A stretch of DNA of 64,000 nt, from assembly GCF_013122565.1 (NCBI RefSeq), contig NZ_CP053258.1; one strand, written 5' to 3'. Position 1 is the first letter of the stretch, and each line of letters begins with the position of its first letter. The DNA comes from Escherichia coli (GTDB lineage: Bacteria; Pseudomonadota; Gammaproteobacteria; Enterobacterales; Enterobacteriaceae). Under the pieces are notes generated by a model that was not told the DNA's origin, ran no database searches, and saw nothing but the letters and a program-made list of their open reading frames with translations. The position numbers and the translations under genes are program-made. Shown here one piece after another: positions 1,083 to 35,186 of this stretch.

Positions 1083-3341
1083 ATGAGCGATATGGCAGAG
1101 CGCCTTGCGCTACATGAATTTACGGAAAACGCCTACTTAAACTACTCCATGTACGTGATCATGGACCGTGCGTTGCCGTTTATTGGTGATGGTCTGAAAC
1201 CTGTTCAGCGCCGCATTGTGTATGCGATGTCTGAACTGGGCCTGAATGCCAGCGCCAAATTTAAAAAATCGGCCCGTACCGTCGGTGACGTACTGGGTAA
1301 ATACCATCCGCACGGCGATAGCGCCTGTTATGAAGCGATGGTCCTGATGGCGCAGCCGTTCTCTTACCGTTATCCGCTGGTTGATGGTCAGGGGAACTGG
1401 GGCGCGCCGGACGATCCGAAATCGTTCGCGGCAATGCGTTACACCGAATCCCGGTTGTCGAAATATTCCGAGCTGCTATTGAGCGAGTTGGGGCAGGGGA
1501 CGGCTGACTGGGTGCCAAACTTCGACGGCACTTTGCAGGAGCCGAAAATGCTACCTGCCCGTCTGCCAAACATTTTGCTTAACGGCACCACCGGTATTGC
1601 CGTCGGCATGGCGACCGATATTCCACCGCATAACCTGCGTGAAGTGGCTCAGGCGGCAATCGCATTAATCGACCAGCCGAAAACCACGCTCGATCAGCTG
1701 CTGGATATCGTGCAGGGGCCGGATTATCCGACTGAAGCGGAAATTATCACTTCGCGCGCCGAGATCCGTAAAATCTACGAGAACGGACGTGGTTCAGTGC
1801 GTATGCGCGCGGTGTGGAAGAAAGAAGATGGCGCGGTGGTTATCAGCGCATTGCCGCATCAGGTTTCAGGTGCGCGCGTACTGGAGCAAATTGCTGCGCA
1901 AATGCGCAACAAAAAGCTGCCGATGGTTGACGATCTGCGCGATGAATCTGACCACGAGAACCCGACCCGTCTGGTGATTGTGCCGCGTTCCAACCGCGTG
2001 GATATGGATCAGGTGATGAACCACCTCTTCGCTACCACCGATCTGGAAAAGAGCTATCGCATTAACCTCAATATGATCGGTCTGGATGGTCGTCCGGCGG
2101 TGAAAAACCTGCTGGAAATTCTCTCCGAATGGCTGGTGTTCCGCCGCGATACCGTGCGCCGCCGACTGAACTATCATCTGGAGAAAGTCCTCAAGCGCCT
2201 GCATATCCTCGAAGGTTTGCTGGTGGCGTTTCTCAATATCGACGAAGTGATTGAGATCATTCGTAATGAAGATGAACCGAAACCGGCGCTGATGTCGCGG
2301 TTTGGCCTTACGGAAACCCAGGCGGAAGCGATCCTCGAACTGAAACTGCGTCATCTCGCCAAACTGGAAGAGATGAAGATTCGCGGTGAGCAGAGTGAGC
2401 TGGAAAAAGAGCGCGACCAGTTGCAGGGCATTTTGGCTTCCGAGCGTAAAATGAATAACCTGCTGAAGAAAGAACTGCAGGCAGACGCGCAAGCCTACGG
2501 TGACGATCGTCGTTCGCCGTTGCAGGAACGCGAAGAAGCGAAAGCGATGAGCGAGCACGACATGCTGCCGTCTGAACCTGTCACCATTGTGCTGTCGCAG
2601 ATGGGCTGGGTACGCAGCGCTAAAGGCCATGATATCGACGCGCCGGGCCTGAATTATAAAGCGGGTGATAGCTTCAAAGCGGCGGTGAAAGGTAAGAGCA
2701 ACCAACCGGTAGTGTTTGTTGATTCCACCGGTCGTAGCTATGCCATTGACCCGATTACGCTGCCGTCGGCGCGTGGTCAGGGCGAACCGCTCACCGGCAA
2801 ATTAACGTTGCCGCCTGGGGCGACCGTTGACCATATGCTGATGGAAAGCGACGATCAGAAACTGCTGATGGCTTCCGATGCGGGTTACGGTTTCGTCTGC
2901 ACCTTTAACGATCTGGTGGCGCGTAACCGTGCAGGTAAGGCTTTGATCACCTTACCGGAAAATGCCCATGTTATGCCGCCGGTGGTGATTGAAGATGCTT
3001 CCGATATGCTGCTGGCAATCACTCAGGCAGGCCGTATGTTGATGTTCCCGGTAAGTGATCTGCCGCAGCTGTCGAAGGGCAAAGGCAACAAGATTATCAA
3101 CATTCCATCGGCAGAAGCCGCGCGTGGCGAGGATGGTCTGGCGCAACTGTACGTTCTGCCGCCGCAAAGCACGCTGACCATTCATGTTGGGAAACGCAAA
3201 ATTAAACTGCGTCCGGAAGAGCTACAGAAAGTCACTGGCGAACGTGGACGCCGCGGTACGTTGATGCGCGGTTTGCAGCGTATCGATCGTGTTGAGATCG
3301 ACTCTCCTCGCCGTGCCAGCAGCGGTGATAGCGAAGAGTAA
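1083..3341 (+). CDS. parC: DNA topoisomerase IV subunit A
   Basis: 752 aa; N-terminus [32 protein letters not shown]; GyrA/ParC family motifs. Confidence 0.95.
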
Positions 3342-3382
3342 TATGCCGGGGCGGGCGCTGTTTCCTCCCGCTTGCAAGGAAC

Positions 3383-3411
3383 GCCGGATGAAACGTTAAG
3401 TCGTCATCCGG
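3383..3411. repeat. REP-like palindromic hairpin downstream of parC
   Basis: gccggatg ... catccggc inverted repeat. Confidence 0.4.
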
Positions 3412-3574
3412 CAGCGTATTCAACCCCCGGAAACGATAAAAATTCCCTTGAAACCGTTGTTTATTCATGCGTTGCGATTAACAATACGCTTTTCCAGAGA
3501 GCGGCTTTTAACAATGCCCTAACCTGATTTCAGGTGACGTACAATGCCAGTCTCTCAGACCTTCAGAGGGTGTT

Positions 3575-4312
3575 ATGCTATATATCTTTCGTCTTATTAT
3601 TACCGTGATTTACAGCATCTTAGTCTGTGTATTCGGCTCCATTTACTGCCTTTTCAGCCCGCGTAACCCGAAACATGTGGCCACCTTTGGGCATATGTTT
3701 GGCCGTCTTGCGCCGCTGTTCGGCCTGAAAGTTGAGTGCCGCAAACCTGCAGACGCTGAAAGCTACGGCAATGCTATCTATATCGCTAACCACCAGAACA
3801 ACTATGACATGGTGACAGCATCGAACATTGTGCAACCGCCGACGGTGACGGTAGGTAAAAAGAGCTTGCTGTGGATCCCCTTCTTCGGGCAGTTGTACTG
3901 GTTAACCGGCAACTTATTGATCGACAGAAACAATCGCACTAAAGCTCACGGCACTATTGCGGAAGTCGTGAATCACTTCAAAAAACGCCGTATTTCCATC
4001 TGGATGTTCCCGGAAGGAACCCGCAGTCGTGGTCGCGGCCTGCTACCGTTCAAAACCGGGGCATTTCACGCGGCAATTGCGGCAGGCGTCCCGATTATTC
4101 CCGTGTGCGTCTCTACAACTTCGAATAAGATTAATCTTAATCGACTGCACAACGGTCTGGTGATTGTCGAAATGCTGCCGCCAGTTGATGTCAGTCAGTA
4201 TGGCAAAGATCAGGTTCGTGAGCTGGCTGCCCATTGTCGTTCGATAATGGAACAAAAAATCGCCGAGCTCGATAAAGAAGTCGCAGAGCGCGAAGCCGCC
4301 GGAAAAGTTTAA
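3575..4312 (+). CDS. plsC: 1-acyl-sn-glycerol-3-phosphate acyltransferase
   Basis: 245 aa; HxxxxD acyltransferase motif (NHQNNYD); FPEGTR motif. Confidence 0.93.
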   Translation: MLYIFRLIITVIYSILVCVFGSIYCLFSPRNPKHVATFGHMFGRLAPLFGLKVECRKPADAESYGNAIYIANHQNNYDMVTASNIVQPPTVTVGKKSLLWIPFFGQLYWLTGNLLIDRNNRTKAHGTIAEVVNHFKKRRISIWMFPEGTRSRGRGLLPFKTGAFHAAIAAGVPIIPVCVSTTSNKINLNRLHNGLVIVEMLPPVDVSQYGKDQVRELAAHCRSIMEQKIAELDKEVAEREAAGKV

Positions 4313-14932: not shown

Positions 14933-15036
14933 ACGTTCCTCCTTTATATGAACTCACCGGAGCAGGCTCCGGTGAGGTGTTGTGAACTTAAGTCTGGACG
15001 AAATGCCCGAAAACGAAAGTTTGAGGCGTAAAAAGC

Positions 15037-18131: not shown

Positions 18132-19319
18132 TTATACAATCCGCGCAAAACCGGCGTCCAGATCGGCAATCAGATCGTCGACATCTTCCAGACCAATATG
18201 CAGGCGAATCAAGGTCCCGCTAAAATCGATCTCGCCTTGTGGGCGAATGGCGGCGATATGTTCTGGTTGATTTGCCAGGATCAACGATTCATACCCGCCC
18301 CACGAGTAGGCCATGCTGAATAAACTGAAGTTATCCAGATAGTTCGCCAGCTCTTCATCATTGAGTTTTTTCTTAAGCACAAAGGAAAATAGCCCGCTGC
18401 TGCCTGTAAAGTCTCGTTTCCAGAATTCGTGTCCTTTACTGCCAGGCAGGGCAGGGTGGTTAACTCGCGCAACTTGCGGATGTTCTGCCAGCCATTCGGC
18501 CACTTTCAGACTGCTTTCATGATGTTGACGCAAACGCACACCTAATGTGCGCAGGCCACGGCTGGTTATATAGGCGGTATCGGCATCGACCATCTGGCCC
18601 ATCAGATAGGCATTTTCCCGTAGCTGCTCCCAGCAACGGGCATTGCACACGGCAGTGCCAATCATCGCATCTGAATGCCCAACCAGATATTTGGTGGCGG
18701 CCTGAATAGAAACATCGATGCCAAAATCCAGCGCCTTAAACAGCACACCGGCTGCCCAGGTGTTGTCGATCATAATGATGGCATCCGGCACCACACTGCG
18801 CACGGCGGCAACAATCGCCGGAACGTCGTGGACTTCCATAGTGATGGAACCCGGCGATTCCAGAAACACGATTTTAGTGTTTGGCTGCAGATGCTTAACG
18901 ATATCGGCACCAATCAGCGGATCAAACCACGATGTCGTTACGCCCAGTTTGCTGAGGATTTTGCTACAGAAATCCTGACTCGGTTCATAGGCGGTGTTGG
19001 TCATCAACACATGATCGCCCTGTTCGACAAAAGCAAGAATCGAATTAGCAACCGCTGCCGCCCCGCAGGGAAATAGCGCGCAGCCTGCGCCACCTTCCAG
19101 TTCACACATCGCTTGTTGTAAGGAAAAATGGGTTAACGTTCCGCGCCGTCCATAGAACAACTCGCCATTGGCGCGATTGCGCGTCGCGTGCTTTTTGGCT
19201 TCCATACTCTCAAATACCAGCGAAGAAGCGCGCTGAATCACGCTATTTACCGCGCCGAGAGTGTATTTTTTGCTGCGTCCTGCATTCACCAGTTGAGTAT
19301 CAAGCTTTTTGTCCGCCAT
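18132..19319 (-). CDS. metC: Cystathionine beta-lyase (PLP-dependent)
   Basis: 395 aa from Met [15 protein letters not shown] (the ORF-track start at 19454 is upstream). Confidence 0.93.
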
Positions 19320-19338
19320 GTCGGGATTCCTGTTTTTA

Positions 19339-19354
19339 TACGTCTGGATGTCTA
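19339..19354. promoter_or_regulatory. Candidate tandem MetJ boxes upstream of metC
   Basis: tacgtctg-gatgtcta resembles two tandem 8-bp met boxes (consensus AGACGTCT) just upstream of the metC start. Confidence 0.4.
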
Positions 19355-19570
19355 AACTAGCATGAATATTCGCGGGCGCATCCTGAAGAATTGGCATAAA
19401 GCAGAAAATTTTCGCAAATGGCGTGCTGGTGACTTTTTTACTGCGTAAACGCAAGGAAAAGAAAGCAAAGGTACGGCAGTATGCAAATAGTAATGAGAAC
19501 GACTATCAATTCGACGTCGTTTTGATATTATTATGCGCAGATTTTGTGACTTGCGTCCTGGAGATACACA

Positions 19571-20305
19571 GTGGGTAATAATTTAATGCAGACGGACCTT
19601 TCCGTCTGGGGTATGTATCAGCACGCCGATATTGTCGTTAAGTGCGTGATGATTGGGCTTATTTTGGCCTCCGTAGTCACCTGGGCAATCTTCTTCAGTA
19701 AGAGCGTAGAGTTCTTCAATCAGAAGCGTCGCCTTAAGCGCGAGCAGCAACTGCTGGCTGAAGCGCGTTCCTTAAACCAGGCCAACGATATCGCCGCTGA
19801 TTTTGGTAGCAAAAGCTTAAGCCTGCATTTGCTCAATGAAGCGCAGAATGAGCTGGAACTGTCAGAAGGCAGCGACGATAACGAAGGTATTAAAGAACGT
19901 ACCAGCTTCCGTCTGGAGCGTCGGGTCGCCGCAGTAGGTCGTCAAATGGGCCGCGGTAACGGCTATCTGGCAACCATCGGCGCGATTTCGCCGTTCGTTG
20001 GTCTGTTTGGTACGGTCTGGGGCATCATGAACAGCTTTATTGGTATCGCGCAAACGCAGACTACTAACCTGGCAGTCGTTGCGCCGGGTATCGCAGAAGC
20101 TCTGTTAGCAACGGCAATCGGCCTCGTGGCAGCGATTCCTGCGGTCGTTATCTATAACGTATTTGCACGCCAGATTGGCGGCTTTAAAGCGATGCTGGGT
20201 GATGTTGCAGCGCAGGTATTGTTGCTGCAAAGCCGTGACCTGGATCTGGAAGCCAGCGCCGCTGCGCATCCGGTTCGTGTCGCACAAAAATTACGCGCAG
20301 GATAA
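19571..20305 (+). CDS. exbB: Ton system proton-channel protein ExbB
   Basis: 244 aa; GTG start; MGNNLMQTDLSVWGMYQHADIVVKCVMIGLIL. Confidence 0.93.
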   Translation: MGNNLMQTDLSVWGMYQHADIVVKCVMIGLILASVVTWAIFFSKSVEFFNQKRRLKREQQLLAEARSLNQANDIAADFGSKSLSLHLLNEAQNELELSEGSDDNEGIKERTSFRLERRVAAVGRQMGRGNGYLATIGAISPFVGLFGTVWGIMNSFIGIAQTQTTNLAVVAPGIAEALLATAIGLVAAIPAVVIYNVFARQIGGFKAMLGDVAAQVLLLQSRDLDLEASAAAHPVRVAQKLRAG

Positions 20306-20311
20306 TGCCCG

Positions 20312-20737
20312 ATGGCAATGCATCTTAACGAAAACCTCGATGATAACGGCGAAATGCATGATATCAACGTGACGCCGTTTATCGACGTGATGTTGGTTCT
20401 GCTGATTATCTTTATGGTGGCGGCACCGTTAGCGACGGTAGATGTGAAGGTGAACTTGCCTGCTTCTACCAGCACGCCGCAGCCGCGCCCGGAAAAACCG
20501 GTTTATCTGTCGGTGAAGGCAGACAACTCGATGTTTATCGGTAACGATCCGGTCACCGATGAAACAATGATTACGGCGTTGAATGCGTTAACCGAAGGCA
20601 AGAAAGACACCACCATCTTCTTCCGAGCGGATAAAACCGTCGATTACGAGACGTTGATGAAGGTAATGGATACGCTGCATCAGGCGGGTTACCTGAAGAT
20701 AGGTCTGGTCGGCGAAGAAACCGCCAAAGCGAAGTAA
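20312..20737 (+). CDS. exbD: Ton system protein ExbD
   Basis: 141 aa; immediately downstream of exbB. Confidence 0.93.
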   Translation: MAMHLNENLDDNGEMHDINVTPFIDVMLVLLIIFMVAAPLATVDVKVNLPASTSTPQPRPEKPVYLSVKADNSMFIGNDPVTDETMITALNALTEGKKDTTIFFRADKTVDYETLMKVMDTLHQAGYLKIGLVGEETAKAK

Positions 20738-20746
20738 AGTAGAATT

Positions 20747-20960
20747 GCCTGATGCGCTACGCTCATCAGGCCTACAAAATCTATTGCAACATGTTGAATC
20801 TTCGTGCGTTTGTAGGCCGGATAAGGCGTTCACGCCGCATCCGGCATTAGGGGCTCAATGCCTGATGCGCTACGCTCATCAGGCCTACAAAATCTATTGC
20901 AACATGTTGAATCTTCATGCGTTTGTAGGCGGATAAGGCGTTTTCGCCACATCAGGTAAG
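20747..20960. repeat. BIME/REP cluster (two tandem ~100-bp units of palindromic elements)
   Basis: Near-exact direct repeat of gcctgatgcgctacgctcatcaggcctacaaaatctattgcaacatgttgaatcttc...gtaggc(c)ggataaggcgtt; REP-type palindromes. Confidence 0.8.
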
Positions 20961-20977
20961 AGTGAATTCACAATGAT

Positions 20978-21011
20978 GCCCGGTTGCTTTTCACAACCGG
21001 GCATTTTTTTA
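20978..21011 (+). terminator. Rho-independent terminator (hairpin plus T7)
   Basis: gcccggttg-cttttcac-caaccgggc followed by TTTTTTT. Confidence 0.6.
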
Positions 21012-21893
21012 ACCTAAATGCTCGCCGCCGCACACGCCGTGCACTTCTGCGGTGACGTAGCTCGACTCCTGACTTGCCAGATAAACATATACAGGGGCCA
21101 GTTCCGCCGGTTGCCCCGCACGCTTCATCGGCGTTTGCTGACCAAACTGCGGGATCTTATCCTGCGTTTGTCCGCCGGAAATTTGCAGTGCTGTCCAGAT
21201 TGGGCCTGGCGCGACAATATTCACCCGAATACCTTTCTCTGCGACCTGTTTTGCCAGGCCACGGCTGTAGTTCAGAATTGCCGCCTTCGTAGCCGCATAG
21301 TCCAGTAAATGCGGGCTTGGCTGGTATGCCTGGATTGACGAAGTGGTGATGATACTTGCACCTTTCGGTAGCAGGGGGATCGCTTCCTGGGTTAGCCAGA
21401 ACAGCGCGAAAACGTTAATGGCAAAGGTCTTTTGAAACTGTTCGCTGGTGAGGTCTGCAATATCAGGAATGGCAACCTGTTTCCCGGCGACCAGCGCCAT
21501 AATATCCAGCCCGCCTAAGGCCTTATGCGCTTCGTGAACCAGCGAACGGGCAAATTTCTCATCGCTTAAATCGCCTGGCAGCAGAACGGCTTTGCGTCCG
21601 CATTCTTCAATGATCTTTTTCACATCCTGAGCGTCTTCTTCTTCCACGGGAAGATAACTGATCGCCACGTCAGCCCCTTCACGCGCGTAAGCGATGGCGG
21701 CAGCGCGACCGATTCCGGAATCGCCCCCTGTCACCAGGGCTTTACGATCTTTCAGGCGACCGCTACCAACATAGGTTTTCTCGCCGCAATCCGGTACCGG
21801 TGTCATCTTCGCCTGGATGCCTGGCGTCGGTTGTTTCTGTTTGGGATATTCACCAGTGTAATACTGCGTGGTCGGGTCTTTTAAATGAGACAT
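21009..21893 (-). CDS. yghA: Short-chain dehydrogenase/reductase YghA
   Basis: 294 aa; Rossmann motif [10 protein letters not shown]. Confidence 0.9.
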
Positions 21894-31593: not shown

Positions 31594-31842
31594 ATGTGTA
31601 TTGGCGTTCCAGGCCAGGTGCTGGCTGTCGGTGAAGATATTCACCAGCTTGCGCAGGTTGAAGTATGTGGTATCAAGCGCGACGTGAATATCGCCCTGAT
31701 TTGTGAAGGTAACCCTGCCGATCTGCTGGGCCAGTGGGTGCTGGTACACGTCGGATTTGCCATGAGCATCATCGACGAAGATGAAGCCAAAGCCACATTA
31801 GACGCGCTGCGCCAAATGGATTACGACATTACCAGCGCGTGA
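31594..31842 (+). CDS. hybG: Hydrogenase maturation factor (HypC paralogue)
   Basis: 82 aa; [10 protein letters not shown]-terminus with Cys2. Confidence 0.92.
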
Positions 31843-31854
31843 TGATTAGCTTTT

Positions 31855-31945
31855 GTAGGCCTGATAAGACGCGATAGCGTCGCATCAGGCATTGTGCTCG
31901 ATTGCCGGATGCGGCGTGAATGCCTTATCCGGCCTGGATGGCTTG
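31855..31945. repeat. REP palindromic elements
   Basis: gtaggcctgataagacgcgatagcgtcgcatcaggc ... gccggatgcggcgtgaatgccttatccggcc. Confidence 0.75.
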
Positions 31946-31964: not shown

Positions 31965-32831
31965 TTACCCCTGACGCTTATCTTCCGTATTCGTCTCGAA
32001 ATCACTGGCGTCATGGCGCTCATGCAACTGCTCGTTCAACGGCCCGTTGGTGCGGTTAACAATACGCCCACGTTTCACCGCCGGACGTTCGCCCACTTCT
32101 TTTGCCCAGCGTTGCACATGCTTATAACTACCCGCATCAAGAAACTCTGCGGCATCATACACGCCGCCTAACACCACGTTGCCAAACCACGGCCAAATCG
32201 CCATATCCGCAATGGTGTACTCATCGCCTGCAACAAACTTATGCTGCGCCAGTTGCTTATCCAGCACGTCGAGAAGGCGCTTGGCTTCCATGGTAAAGCG
32301 ATTGATGGCGTACTCAATTTTCACCGGCGCGTAATGGTAAAAGTGACCAAAACCACCGCCGAGGAACGGTGCCGCGCCCTGTAACCAGAACAGCCAGTTC
32401 AGCGTTTCAGTCCGTTTTGCCAGATCCTGCGGCAGGAAGTAGCCAAATTTCTCCGCCAGATAAAGCAGAATCGATCCAGACTCAAACACGCGGATCGGCG
32501 GATTATGCGTATGATCGCGCAGCGCCGGGATCTTCGAGTTTGGGTTTACTTCGACAAAGCCGCTGGAGAATTGATCACCATCGCCTATGCGTATCAGCCA
32601 GGCATCGTACTCTGCGCCAGTAACGCCCAGCGCGAGCAGCTCCTCAAGCATAATCGTTACTTTCTGACCGTTCGGCGTTCCCAGCGAATAAAGTTGTAAT
32701 GGATGTTTGCCCACCGGCAGCGTTTTTTCATGCGTCGGACCAGAAACCGGGCGATTGATATTGGCGAACGCGCCGCCAGCGAATTTATCCCACGTCCAGA
32801 CTTTCGCGGGCTGATAAGTATTGTCTGTCAT
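31965..32831 (-). CDS. yghU: Glutathione S-transferase-like disulfide reductase YghU
   Basis: 288 aa from Met MTDNTYQPAKVWTWDK (the ORF-track start at 32879 is upstream). Confidence 0.9.
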   Translation of the reverse strand: MTDNTYQPAKVWTWDKFAGGAFANINRPVSGPTHEKTLPVGKHPLQLYSLGTPNGQKVTIMLEELLALGVTGAEYDAWLIRIGDGDQFSSGFVEVNPNSKIPALRDHTHNPPIRVFESGSILLYLAEKFGYFLPQDLAKRTETLNWLFWLQGAAPFLGGGFGHFYHYAPVKIEYAINRFTMEAKRLLDVLDKQLAQHKFVAGDEYTIADMAIWPWFGNVVLGGVYDAAEFLDAGSYKHVQRWAKEVGERPAVKRGRIVNRTNGPLNEQLHERHDASDFETNTEDKRQG

Positions 32832-33035
32832 AGTGAGTTGCCTTCTGAGTGGTAGTGTTGAAGCAGTGTAGCAGGTCACTTGCTGTACAGAATGTGAATT
32901 TTTTAACCCTTTGCGCCAGCCGCTGCGATGAGGTGTATGATTAGTCTGACCTCTGTCCGGTTAATGTCGCTGAGCAGGTAATCAGAGCACAACAATTACG
33001 CCAACTGCTTAGGTTGTATTGTTAAAGGTAAAGTG

Positions 33036-34895: not shown

Positions 34896-35186
34896 TACAT
34901 GTTGTAACAACCCCGTACTGATTATGAACAATAATTAGTACGGGGATTAATCAAAATATTCAATATTTATATATTCCAATATTTATTCATTTCATATGTG
35001 AATATATTAACCAGCAGAATGCCTGTATTCTGATTATTTCTAAAGATTTTGAATGAATGCTTATTGTCTGATACACAAGAAATAACACTCTTTTTATCGT
35101 TAAAAAATGATATTTCACTTTGCCCACACCGTTAAAGTCACTGATAATGCGTCCGTTCGTAAATTCAAAATGGCGTAATCTAATAT

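Follow-up and report, generated by a model that had tools for sequence, protein, structure and literature searches.

A duplicated BIME-1-type module upstream of the exbBD terminator in the exbD-yghA spacer of Escherichia coli

Results

Gene order around the exbD-yghA spacer

The stretch of Escherichia coli DNA analysed in this work (64,000 nt of contig NZ_CP053258.1, hereafter the window) carries metC (18132-19454, minus strand), exbB (19571-20305, plus strand), exbD and yghA, followed by yqhA and gpr, as deduced from the list of open reading frames (ORFs) and the RefSeq annotation of matching genomes. The same annotation agrees with the names exbD and yghA, which had already been given to the two genes in a model-made reading of this DNA, the first-pass annotation. 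According to the ORF list exbD and yghA converge on a spacer of 271 bp (20738-21008), and the measured gap between the TAA stop codon of exbD (20735-20737) and the stem of the first repetitive extragenic palindrome (REP) is only 9 nt. The spacer of K-12 MG1655 has the same length (271 bp) and differs from that of the window by 3 substitutions. The coordinates of all features considered below are collected in Table 1.

Some details of the annotation in this region are worth mentioning apart from the repeats themselves. The palindromes are crossed by small ORFs of 40-63 aa, at 20745-20936 (plus strand, 63 aa) and 20830-20952 (minus strand), and in at least one RefSeq genome, that of strain EC052, a 'hypothetical protein' is annotated beside exbD at the repeat; such ORFs across the repeats are probably spurious gene calls arising from the palindromes. 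In several genomes RefSeq/PGAP calls the exbB product 'tol-pal system-associated acyl-CoA thioesterase' (WP_000527851.1, WP_000527844.1), a name that looks mis-assigned, the protein being the ExbB of the TonB system. Elsewhere in the window Rfam retrieved at gathering level the sRNA families C0719 (57084-57305, minus strand, 299 bits) and ES173 (14971-15034, minus strand, 99 bits), both unrelated to the repeat.

Table 1. Positions in the window of the REP elements, linkers, terminator and flanking coding sequences.
Feature	Position	Strand	Remarks
exbD CDS	20312-20737	+	ORF list; RefSeq annotation of matching genomes
z1 REP, copy 1	20747-20775		29 nt, GCCTGATGCGCTACGCTCATCAGGCCTAC; CTAC ends the plus strand, hence GTAG-first on the minus strand
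L-type linker, copy 1	20776-20811		36 nt, tail-to-tail; IHF-like core CAACATGTTGAAT at 20787-20799
y REP, copy 1	20812-20845		GTAGGCCGGATAAGGCGTTCACGCCGCATCCGGC, GTAG-first on the plus strand
Head-to-head junction linker, unit 1/unit 2	20846-20859		14 nt, ATTAGGGGCTCAAT, S-like
z1 REP, copy 2	20860-20888		Identical to copy 1 in the window
L-type linker, copy 2	20889-20924		1 substitution relative to copy 1
Decayed y REP (y*)	20925-20956		GTAGGC-GGATAAGGCGTTTTCGCCACATCAGG; 1 stem base deleted, z-like right arm CATCAGG
Intrinsic terminator for exbBD	20975-21010	+	Hairpin 20975-21005, T7 run 21004-21010; terminator scan
yghA CDS	21009-21893	-	ORF list; RefSeq annotation; stop codon is the complement of 21009-21011
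z2 REP after hybG	31855-31890		Long form, GTAG-first on the plus strand; 12 nt past the hybG stop; matches the z2 of REP325
y REP after hybG	31904-31937		Head-to-head partner of z2; -19.5 kcal/mol; foot CTGG, not CTAC

Anatomy and folding of the tandem units

A search for direct repeats (seed of 14, minimum of 28 nt) returned the exbD-yghA tandem as the sole direct repeat of at least 28 nt in the whole 64-kb window, and chance is therefore excluded as its explanation. A 72-nt segment occurs twice (20746-20817 and 20859-20930) with 99% identity and at a distance of 113 bp, and the repeat continues over a further 27 nt (20818-20844 versus 20930-20956) with 85% identity and a 1-nt deletion; the alignment thus upholds the 'two nearly identical ~100-bp units' of the first-pass annotation. 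The 113-bp tandem was not reported by Tandem Repeats Finder, whose sole array in the window is located at 34956-34986 and consists of a 16-bp unit present twice (ATATTCCAATATTTAT) with a 93% match.

Each unit is made up of a z1 REP and a y REP in the opposite orientation, placed tail to tail around a 36-nt L linker. The two units, 113 nt and about 100 nt in length, abut, and the whole array reads z1-L-y-(S-like)-z1-L-y*, where y* designates a decayed copy of y. The REP feet are preserved as CTAC at 20772-20775 and 20885-20888 and as GTAG at 20812-20815 and 20925-20928. The right arm of y* reads CATCAGG, whereas that of the first y copy is CATCCGG. The linker joining the two units, ATTAGGGGCTCAAT, resembles in length and sequence the head-to-head linkers of the REP cluster after hybG (ATTGTGCTCGATT) and of REP325 (AACGGTGCCGACT), and it also resembles ATTCGGTGCTTAA, found in the allele of E. 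coli SCPM-O-B-8794.

RNA folding of the plus strand assigned -15.3 kcal/mol (z -5.1) to each z1 copy (20747-20775 and 20860-20888) and -20.9 kcal/mol (z -4.5) to the y copy at 20812-20845, which contains a 2x2 AA/GC internal loop. The y* element (20925-20956) folded weakly and into a different, non-canonical structure (-9.4 kcal/mol, z -1.8), with an energy equalled or bettered by 9 of 200 shuffled sequences. The minus strand followed the same pattern, with -16.0 kcal/mol for the first z1 copy and -8.8 kcal/mol (z -2.9) for y*. Fold energy, proposed in the first-pass annotation as a check on the units, accordingly gives stable palindromes in three of the four cases (-15.3 kcal/mol twice and -20.9 kcal/mol), the exception being y* at -9.4 kcal/mol. 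The z1 copies and the first y copy have the form of REP palindromes, i.e. stem-loops of 29-37 nt with an internal mismatch, and y* does not. The description of each unit as composed of two palindromic elements is hence correct in full for unit 1, but for unit 2 it holds in a nominal sense, given the weak folding of y*.

REP types and BIME class

The REPs of E. coli differ in length, which is 35 nt for y, 29 nt for z1 and 37 nt for z2 (PMC8266576); in the window units the 29-nt REP is z1 and that of 34-35 nt is y. Membership of the REP family is further indicated by the GTAG/CTAC foot, by the extragenic position in the exbD-yghA spacer and by copy number, as a query that includes the element matches a median of at least 37 places per E. 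coli genome. The tandem BIME/REP units announced earlier for this spacer are made of E. coli z1 and y REPs that carry the GTAG/CTAC foot and the internal mismatch and lie tail to tail round an L-type linker. In the published scheme BIME-1 elements combine z1 and y with a long conserved L linker that often contains an IHF site, and occur as single copies, BIME-2 elements consist of z2 and y arrayed in tandem and joined by a short S linker, and atypical BIMEs are multi-copy chimeras of y, z1, z2, L, S and other motifs (PMC3333891). Each unit between exbD and yghA has one z1 and one inverse y, tail to tail, and a 36-nt linker of the long conserved L type with a putative IHF site, as in BIME-1; the locus holds not a single copy but two units at 113-bp spacing. 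The pair of a 37-nt z2 with y that characterizes BIME-2 does not occur here, the z REPs being of 29 nt, and the element as a whole has the make-up of a multi-copy motif chimera. A BIME-1-type module has been duplicated in tandem here, with an S-like joint, and the element is thus an 'atypical BIME' in the published scheme. This refines the earlier description of the locus, which is a duplicated BIME-1-type module and not a generic BIME.

A comparison with the REP325 array of the yjdM-yjdN region, a BIME-2 described as y plus z2 (PMC4550694) whose z2 was read by us directly in MG1655 as the long form GCCTGATGCGACGCTTGCGCGTCTTATCAGGCCTAC, illustrates both sides of this assignment. The two elements share tandem REP pairs of alternating orientation and a head-to-head linker of about 13 nt, and both exceed the Rfam threshold for naRNA4. 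However, REP325 is built with z2 (37 nt), a 17-nt tail-to-tail linker and six copies, in place of the z1 (29 nt), 36-nt L linker and two copies found at exbD-yghA.

The second REP cluster, reported in the first-pass annotation to follow hybG, was located at 31855-31937, between hybG (31594-31842, plus strand) and a convergent GST-like ORF (31965-32879, minus strand). Its z2 REP folds with -21.9 kcal/mol (z -6.1), and the first y copy of the exbD-yghA element (20812-20845) is 97% complementary to its y REP at 31903-31935. With z2 and y both present this cluster is a single z2-y pair of true BIME-2 type, unlike the z1-L-y units at exbD-yghA. Its y REP, with the foot CTGG at 31934-31937, may no longer be a substrate of the REP-associated transposase TnpA-REP, if GTAG/CTAC is required for recognition. 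We found in the literature no REP RNA data for the hyb cluster comparable to those available for exbD-yghA.

Related modules were searched in E. coli genomes with a 53-nt query that covered the linker together with the REP feet; the median was 6 matching places per genome, and MG1655 had 10. In genomes without the exbD element the best matches were single z1-L-y modules located just downstream of gyrB, gldA and rhlE. An alignment of seven modules (the two window units, the one-unit E. coli allele, the E. albertii copy and the gyrB, gldA and rhlE paralogues) had a mean column identity of 89% over 101 nt, with the linker motif TTGAAT invariant. The BIME-1 (RIB/RIP) elements after gyrB, gldA and rhlE thus share with exbD-yghA the 101-nt z1-L-y module and the location just 3' of a gene, but exbD-yghA differs from these single copies in having two modules in tandem with an S-like head-to-head linker. 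The L linkers at exbD-yghA are also somewhat diverged from the consensus (CAACATGTTGAATCTTCGTG versus CAATATATTGAATTTGCATG).

The terminator and its direction

The terminator hairpin that follows the repeats consists of 12 pairs, 7 of them G-C, with a loop of 7, and folds with -20.5 kcal/mol (z -6.1). The last two T's of its T7 run overlap the yghA stop codon; a strong terminator with exactly this overlap had been proposed, and the hairpin (20975-21005) and the end of the yghA ORF (21009) confirm it. In the allele of the window the terminator scan calls this site on the plus strand only, i.e. in the exbBD direction, whereas in the allele devoid of repeat units (0-unit allele) a terminator is called on both strands. 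This hairpin recurs in the 0-unit, one-unit and E. albertii alleles. In the two-unit allele the BIME stands in place of the upstream A-rich tract, leaving the yghA direction without a U-rich tract after the hairpin. The hairpin at 20975-21005 is the counterpart of the single A-tract/hairpin/T-tract between exbD and yghA in Enterobacter species and 'Escherichia sp. ESNIH1', and departs from a bidirectional intrinsic terminator in that the scan calls the window allele in the exbBD direction only. No site was called by the scan in three outgroup loci (L016, L017 and L019, about 2427-2490), whose A-tract/hairpin/T-tract is nevertheless plain by sequence (e.g. AAAAAAGCTGGCAGGTGCCAGCTTTTTTT); the missed terminators appear to reflect a limitation of the scanning tool and not biology.

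Alleles in E. coli and related species

The spacer was surveyed in 5,426 complete E. coli genomes. The two-unit form had full-length matches in about 3,470-3,590 of them (about 65%), and a query for the empty-site junction matched in full in 1,575 (29%), which carry the terminator-only or 0-unit form. In the latter allele the spacer measures 38 bp, and the terminator hairpin of the window allele follows exbD after a few bases. A one-unit allele, diverged in sequence, is rare (at most 25 records). A mixed allele with the composition z1 - short linker - y - S - z2 - linker - decayed y matched about 15 complete genomes with at least 95% identity and is present in the GTDB representative E. coli SCPM-O-B-8794 (locus position 2427-2685). 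The exbD-yghA site has thus been remodelled more than once. In E. coli AR_0128 (NZ_CP021722.1) a 1,279-bp IS621, a member of the IS110 family, interrupts the second z1 at GGCCT^AC with CT on both flanks (locus position 2887-4165, equivalent to 20883-20888 of the window).

Outgroups were scanned with one genome per species carrying ExbD. After exbD, E. albertii NBRC 107761 (locus position 2427-2780) carries a single z1-L-y unit, decayed, together with the same hairpin. A tblastn search of this genome did not find yghA, and past the hairpin there is only a short stretch similar to the 3' end of yghA; the gene seems to have been lost or truncated in this strain. In two Enterobacter species and in 'Escherichia sp. 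ESNIH1' exbD and yghA are convergent and 50-64 bp apart, with the A-tract/hairpin/T-tract as the only element between them. Among the relatives sampled, the BIME at exbD-yghA is therefore restricted to Escherichia. The simplest history compatible with this distribution would start from a two-way terminator, with gain of a BIME-1 module in the Escherichia lineage and later duplication, remodelling or loss in individual E. coli lines; the 0-unit allele would represent either a loss or the retained ancestral state.

Discussion

Work going back to the 1980s has described REP and BIME elements and the roles they play, and the stabilisation of transcripts is the classical role attributed to REPs. 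The element between exbD and yghA belongs to this well-known class and is itself already known, as an ordinary catalogued REP/BIME element that in K-12 is named REP222 ('5 REPs') and assigned to exbB, exbD and yghA (PMC10100675). REP222 occupies the same position between exbD and yghA and differs from the element of the window by strain-level substitutions only; both z1 copies read GCTCATCAGG in the window, whereas the second K-12 copy is GCTTATCAGG. The K-12 annotation counts 5 REPs (PMC10100675), as against the 4 REP-like palindromes that we identified in the spacer (20747-20956), and the one in excess might correspond to the terminator hairpin or come from a feature that was split. The RefSeq feature table of MG1655 lists no repeat features in the spacer region, and the name REP222 is taken from PMC10100675. 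Our searches of paper supplements found no entries for exbD, yghA or hybG.

Published RNA data bear directly on this locus. Transcripts of exbB, exbD and yghA are among those most raised by fluoride-induced ATP depletion, and Northern blots with a probe over the REPs detected a yghA RNA of about 1,000 nt together with an intermediate of about 300 nt, both stabilised by fluoride, by inactivation of RNase E and by removal of the degradosome scaffold (PMC10100675). These data fit the classical view, summarised in PMC6061677, that REP stem-loops block 3'-to-5' exonucleases and that their clearing needs RhlB and poly(A) polymerase. The suggestion of the first-pass annotation that the repeats stabilise transcripts at exbD-yghA therefore finds backing in the stabilisation of REP-containing yghA RNAs and the accompanying increase of exbB and exbD (PMC10100675). 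The insulating role proposed along with it has been published for BIMEs in general (PMC3333891).

Taken together, these observations are best explained by REP222 being a duplicated BIME-1-type module in the exbBD 3' UTR, inserted before an older terminator, with the mechanism and origin outlined below; we assign to this joint reading a probability of about 0.8. Transcription of exbBD would pass through both units and be stopped by the hairpin with its T7 run. REP stem-loops are present on every terminated exbBD mRNA, because the units lie upstream of the terminator in this direction, and these stem-loops are expected to act as secondary barriers that slow 3'-to-5' exonucleases once the terminator hairpin has been breached. 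The parallel rise of exbB and exbD mRNA (PMC10100675) is consistent with such a barrier role. On the opposite strand, the insertion of the BIME probably weakened termination of yghA, since the scan calls the terminator on the plus strand only in the window and on both strands in the 0-unit allele. The insertion would have removed the U-rich tract that served the yghA direction, and yghA RNAs, their termination thus weakened, would read into the REPs and be trimmed back to them. The published 'full-length' yghA RNA measures about 1,000 nt, somewhat less than expected if transcription crossed all 271 nt of the spacer, so that the extent of this read-through is uncertain. At the level of translation, a REP less than 16 nt from a stop codon lowers translation of the upstream gene, as reported by Liang et al. 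(2015) in the summary given in PMC12306157; the first REP, 9 nt past the exbD stop, falls within this range and lower exbD translation can be predicted by analogy. As DNA, the element probably offers IHF a binding site in each L linker and, lying where two transcription units converge, may attract gyrase through its y REPs, judging from what is described for related elements. The arrival of the module and its duplication would most likely have been brought about by TnpA-REP or by recombination, and the element is not essential.

Several other readings have to be weighed against this one. The most serious holds that REP222 is a selfish or neutral repeat, left by the REP-associated transposase, or by recombination, where it does no harm between two convergent genes, with no selected role there and with any effects on RNA as by-products, and we consider its chances to be slightly below even. 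The presence/absence polymorphism (1,575 of 5,426 genomes with the terminator only), the several unrelated compositions found at one site, the decay of y* in the window and of the whole unit in E. albertii, the other genera that keep the exbD/yghA arrangement without the element and the tolerated insertion of IS621 all point in this direction; indeed, any function must be dispensable, and may be incidental, because 29% of the complete E. coli genomes have no element and its composition varies. However, the two-unit form is the majority allele (about 65%) and the element measurably shapes RNA decay intermediates at the locus (PMC10100675), and neutral and functional readings are not mutually exclusive. 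It is also tempting to speculate on a DNA-level architectural site, in which IHF on the L linkers and gyrase and Pol I on the y REPs would relieve or insulate positive supercoiling between exbBD and yghA. The L linkers have homologues in BIME-1 modules, which often have an IHF site (PMC3333891), the core CAANNNNTTGAAT is kept in both units, gyrase acts on BIMEs and cleaves their y REPs more frequently than z2 REPs (PMC6379681), and the flanking genes are convergent. The published gyrase enrichment nonetheless concerns BIME-2 (z2 plus y) and not z1 elements (PMC6379681), no IHF or gyrase binding data were found for this locus in the literature and 29% of the strains have no element, which makes the architectural role, argued as it is from related elements, a rather doubtful primary explanation.

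The remaining two readings are far less probable. A nucleoid-associated small RNA of the naRNA4 type, bridging DNA cruciforms with HU, could be imagined from the Rfam matches (RF02564, gathering score 59.5) at 20815-20885 on the plus strand (65.5 bits) and at 31858-31934 on the minus strand (85.7 bits), and from the reported transcription of most REP loci and the reported condensation of DNA by HU together with an RNA that has two REP hairpins (PMC4550694). But the Rfam model was built from the y-linker-z2 units of REP325, so that any y/z REP pair scores, the match at exbD-yghA spans the junction of units 1 and 2, pairs y with z1 and not with z2 and falls 6 nt short of the model's length, and the functional tests were made on REP325-derived RNAs only (PMC4550694). 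As far as can be judged from the sequence comparison, the naRNA4 matches reflect REP ancestry in common and not common function, and we hold such an RNA at this locus to be very improbable. A degenerate or minimal CRISPR array would share with the element direct repeats with internal palindromes, yet the 113-bp repeats are only two, they abut with no unique spacers between them, the units belong to a genome-wide REP family and the genes directly flanking the array are exbD and yghA instead of cas genes. The repeat-spacer alternation of a CRISPR locus is thus missing, the anatomy refutes the idea to the point that its probability is practically nil, and the earlier remark that the repeats, although superficially CRISPR-like, have no spacer structure is right, the two units being in direct contact.

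With REP222 read as a duplicated BIME-1-type module in the exbBD 3' UTR, the significance of these findings beyond correct annotation is small, the locus being already named and provided with RNA-decay data. Our analysis adds an exact list of its parts, its sub-class as a duplicated module of BIME-1 type and a view of its distribution in the population. The spread of alleles, about 65% two-unit and 29% empty with rare variants, makes the spacer a convenient natural test bed for REP function. That this allelic series (0-unit, one-unit, two-unit, z2 mix and IS621-disrupted) amounts to more than neutral variation seems to us unlikely; were it so, and the BIME insertion having made an ancestral two-way terminator one-way and set a REP 9 nt past the exbD stop, strains with and without the element could differ in ExbD output and hence in TonB-dependent iron uptake, in yghA read-through antisense to the exbD 3' end, or in the response to ATP or degradosome stress. 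Finally, IS621 targets REPs (PMC1525189), and its insertion in the second z1 of AR_0128 offers at exbD-yghA a textbook case of this REP-specific targeting.
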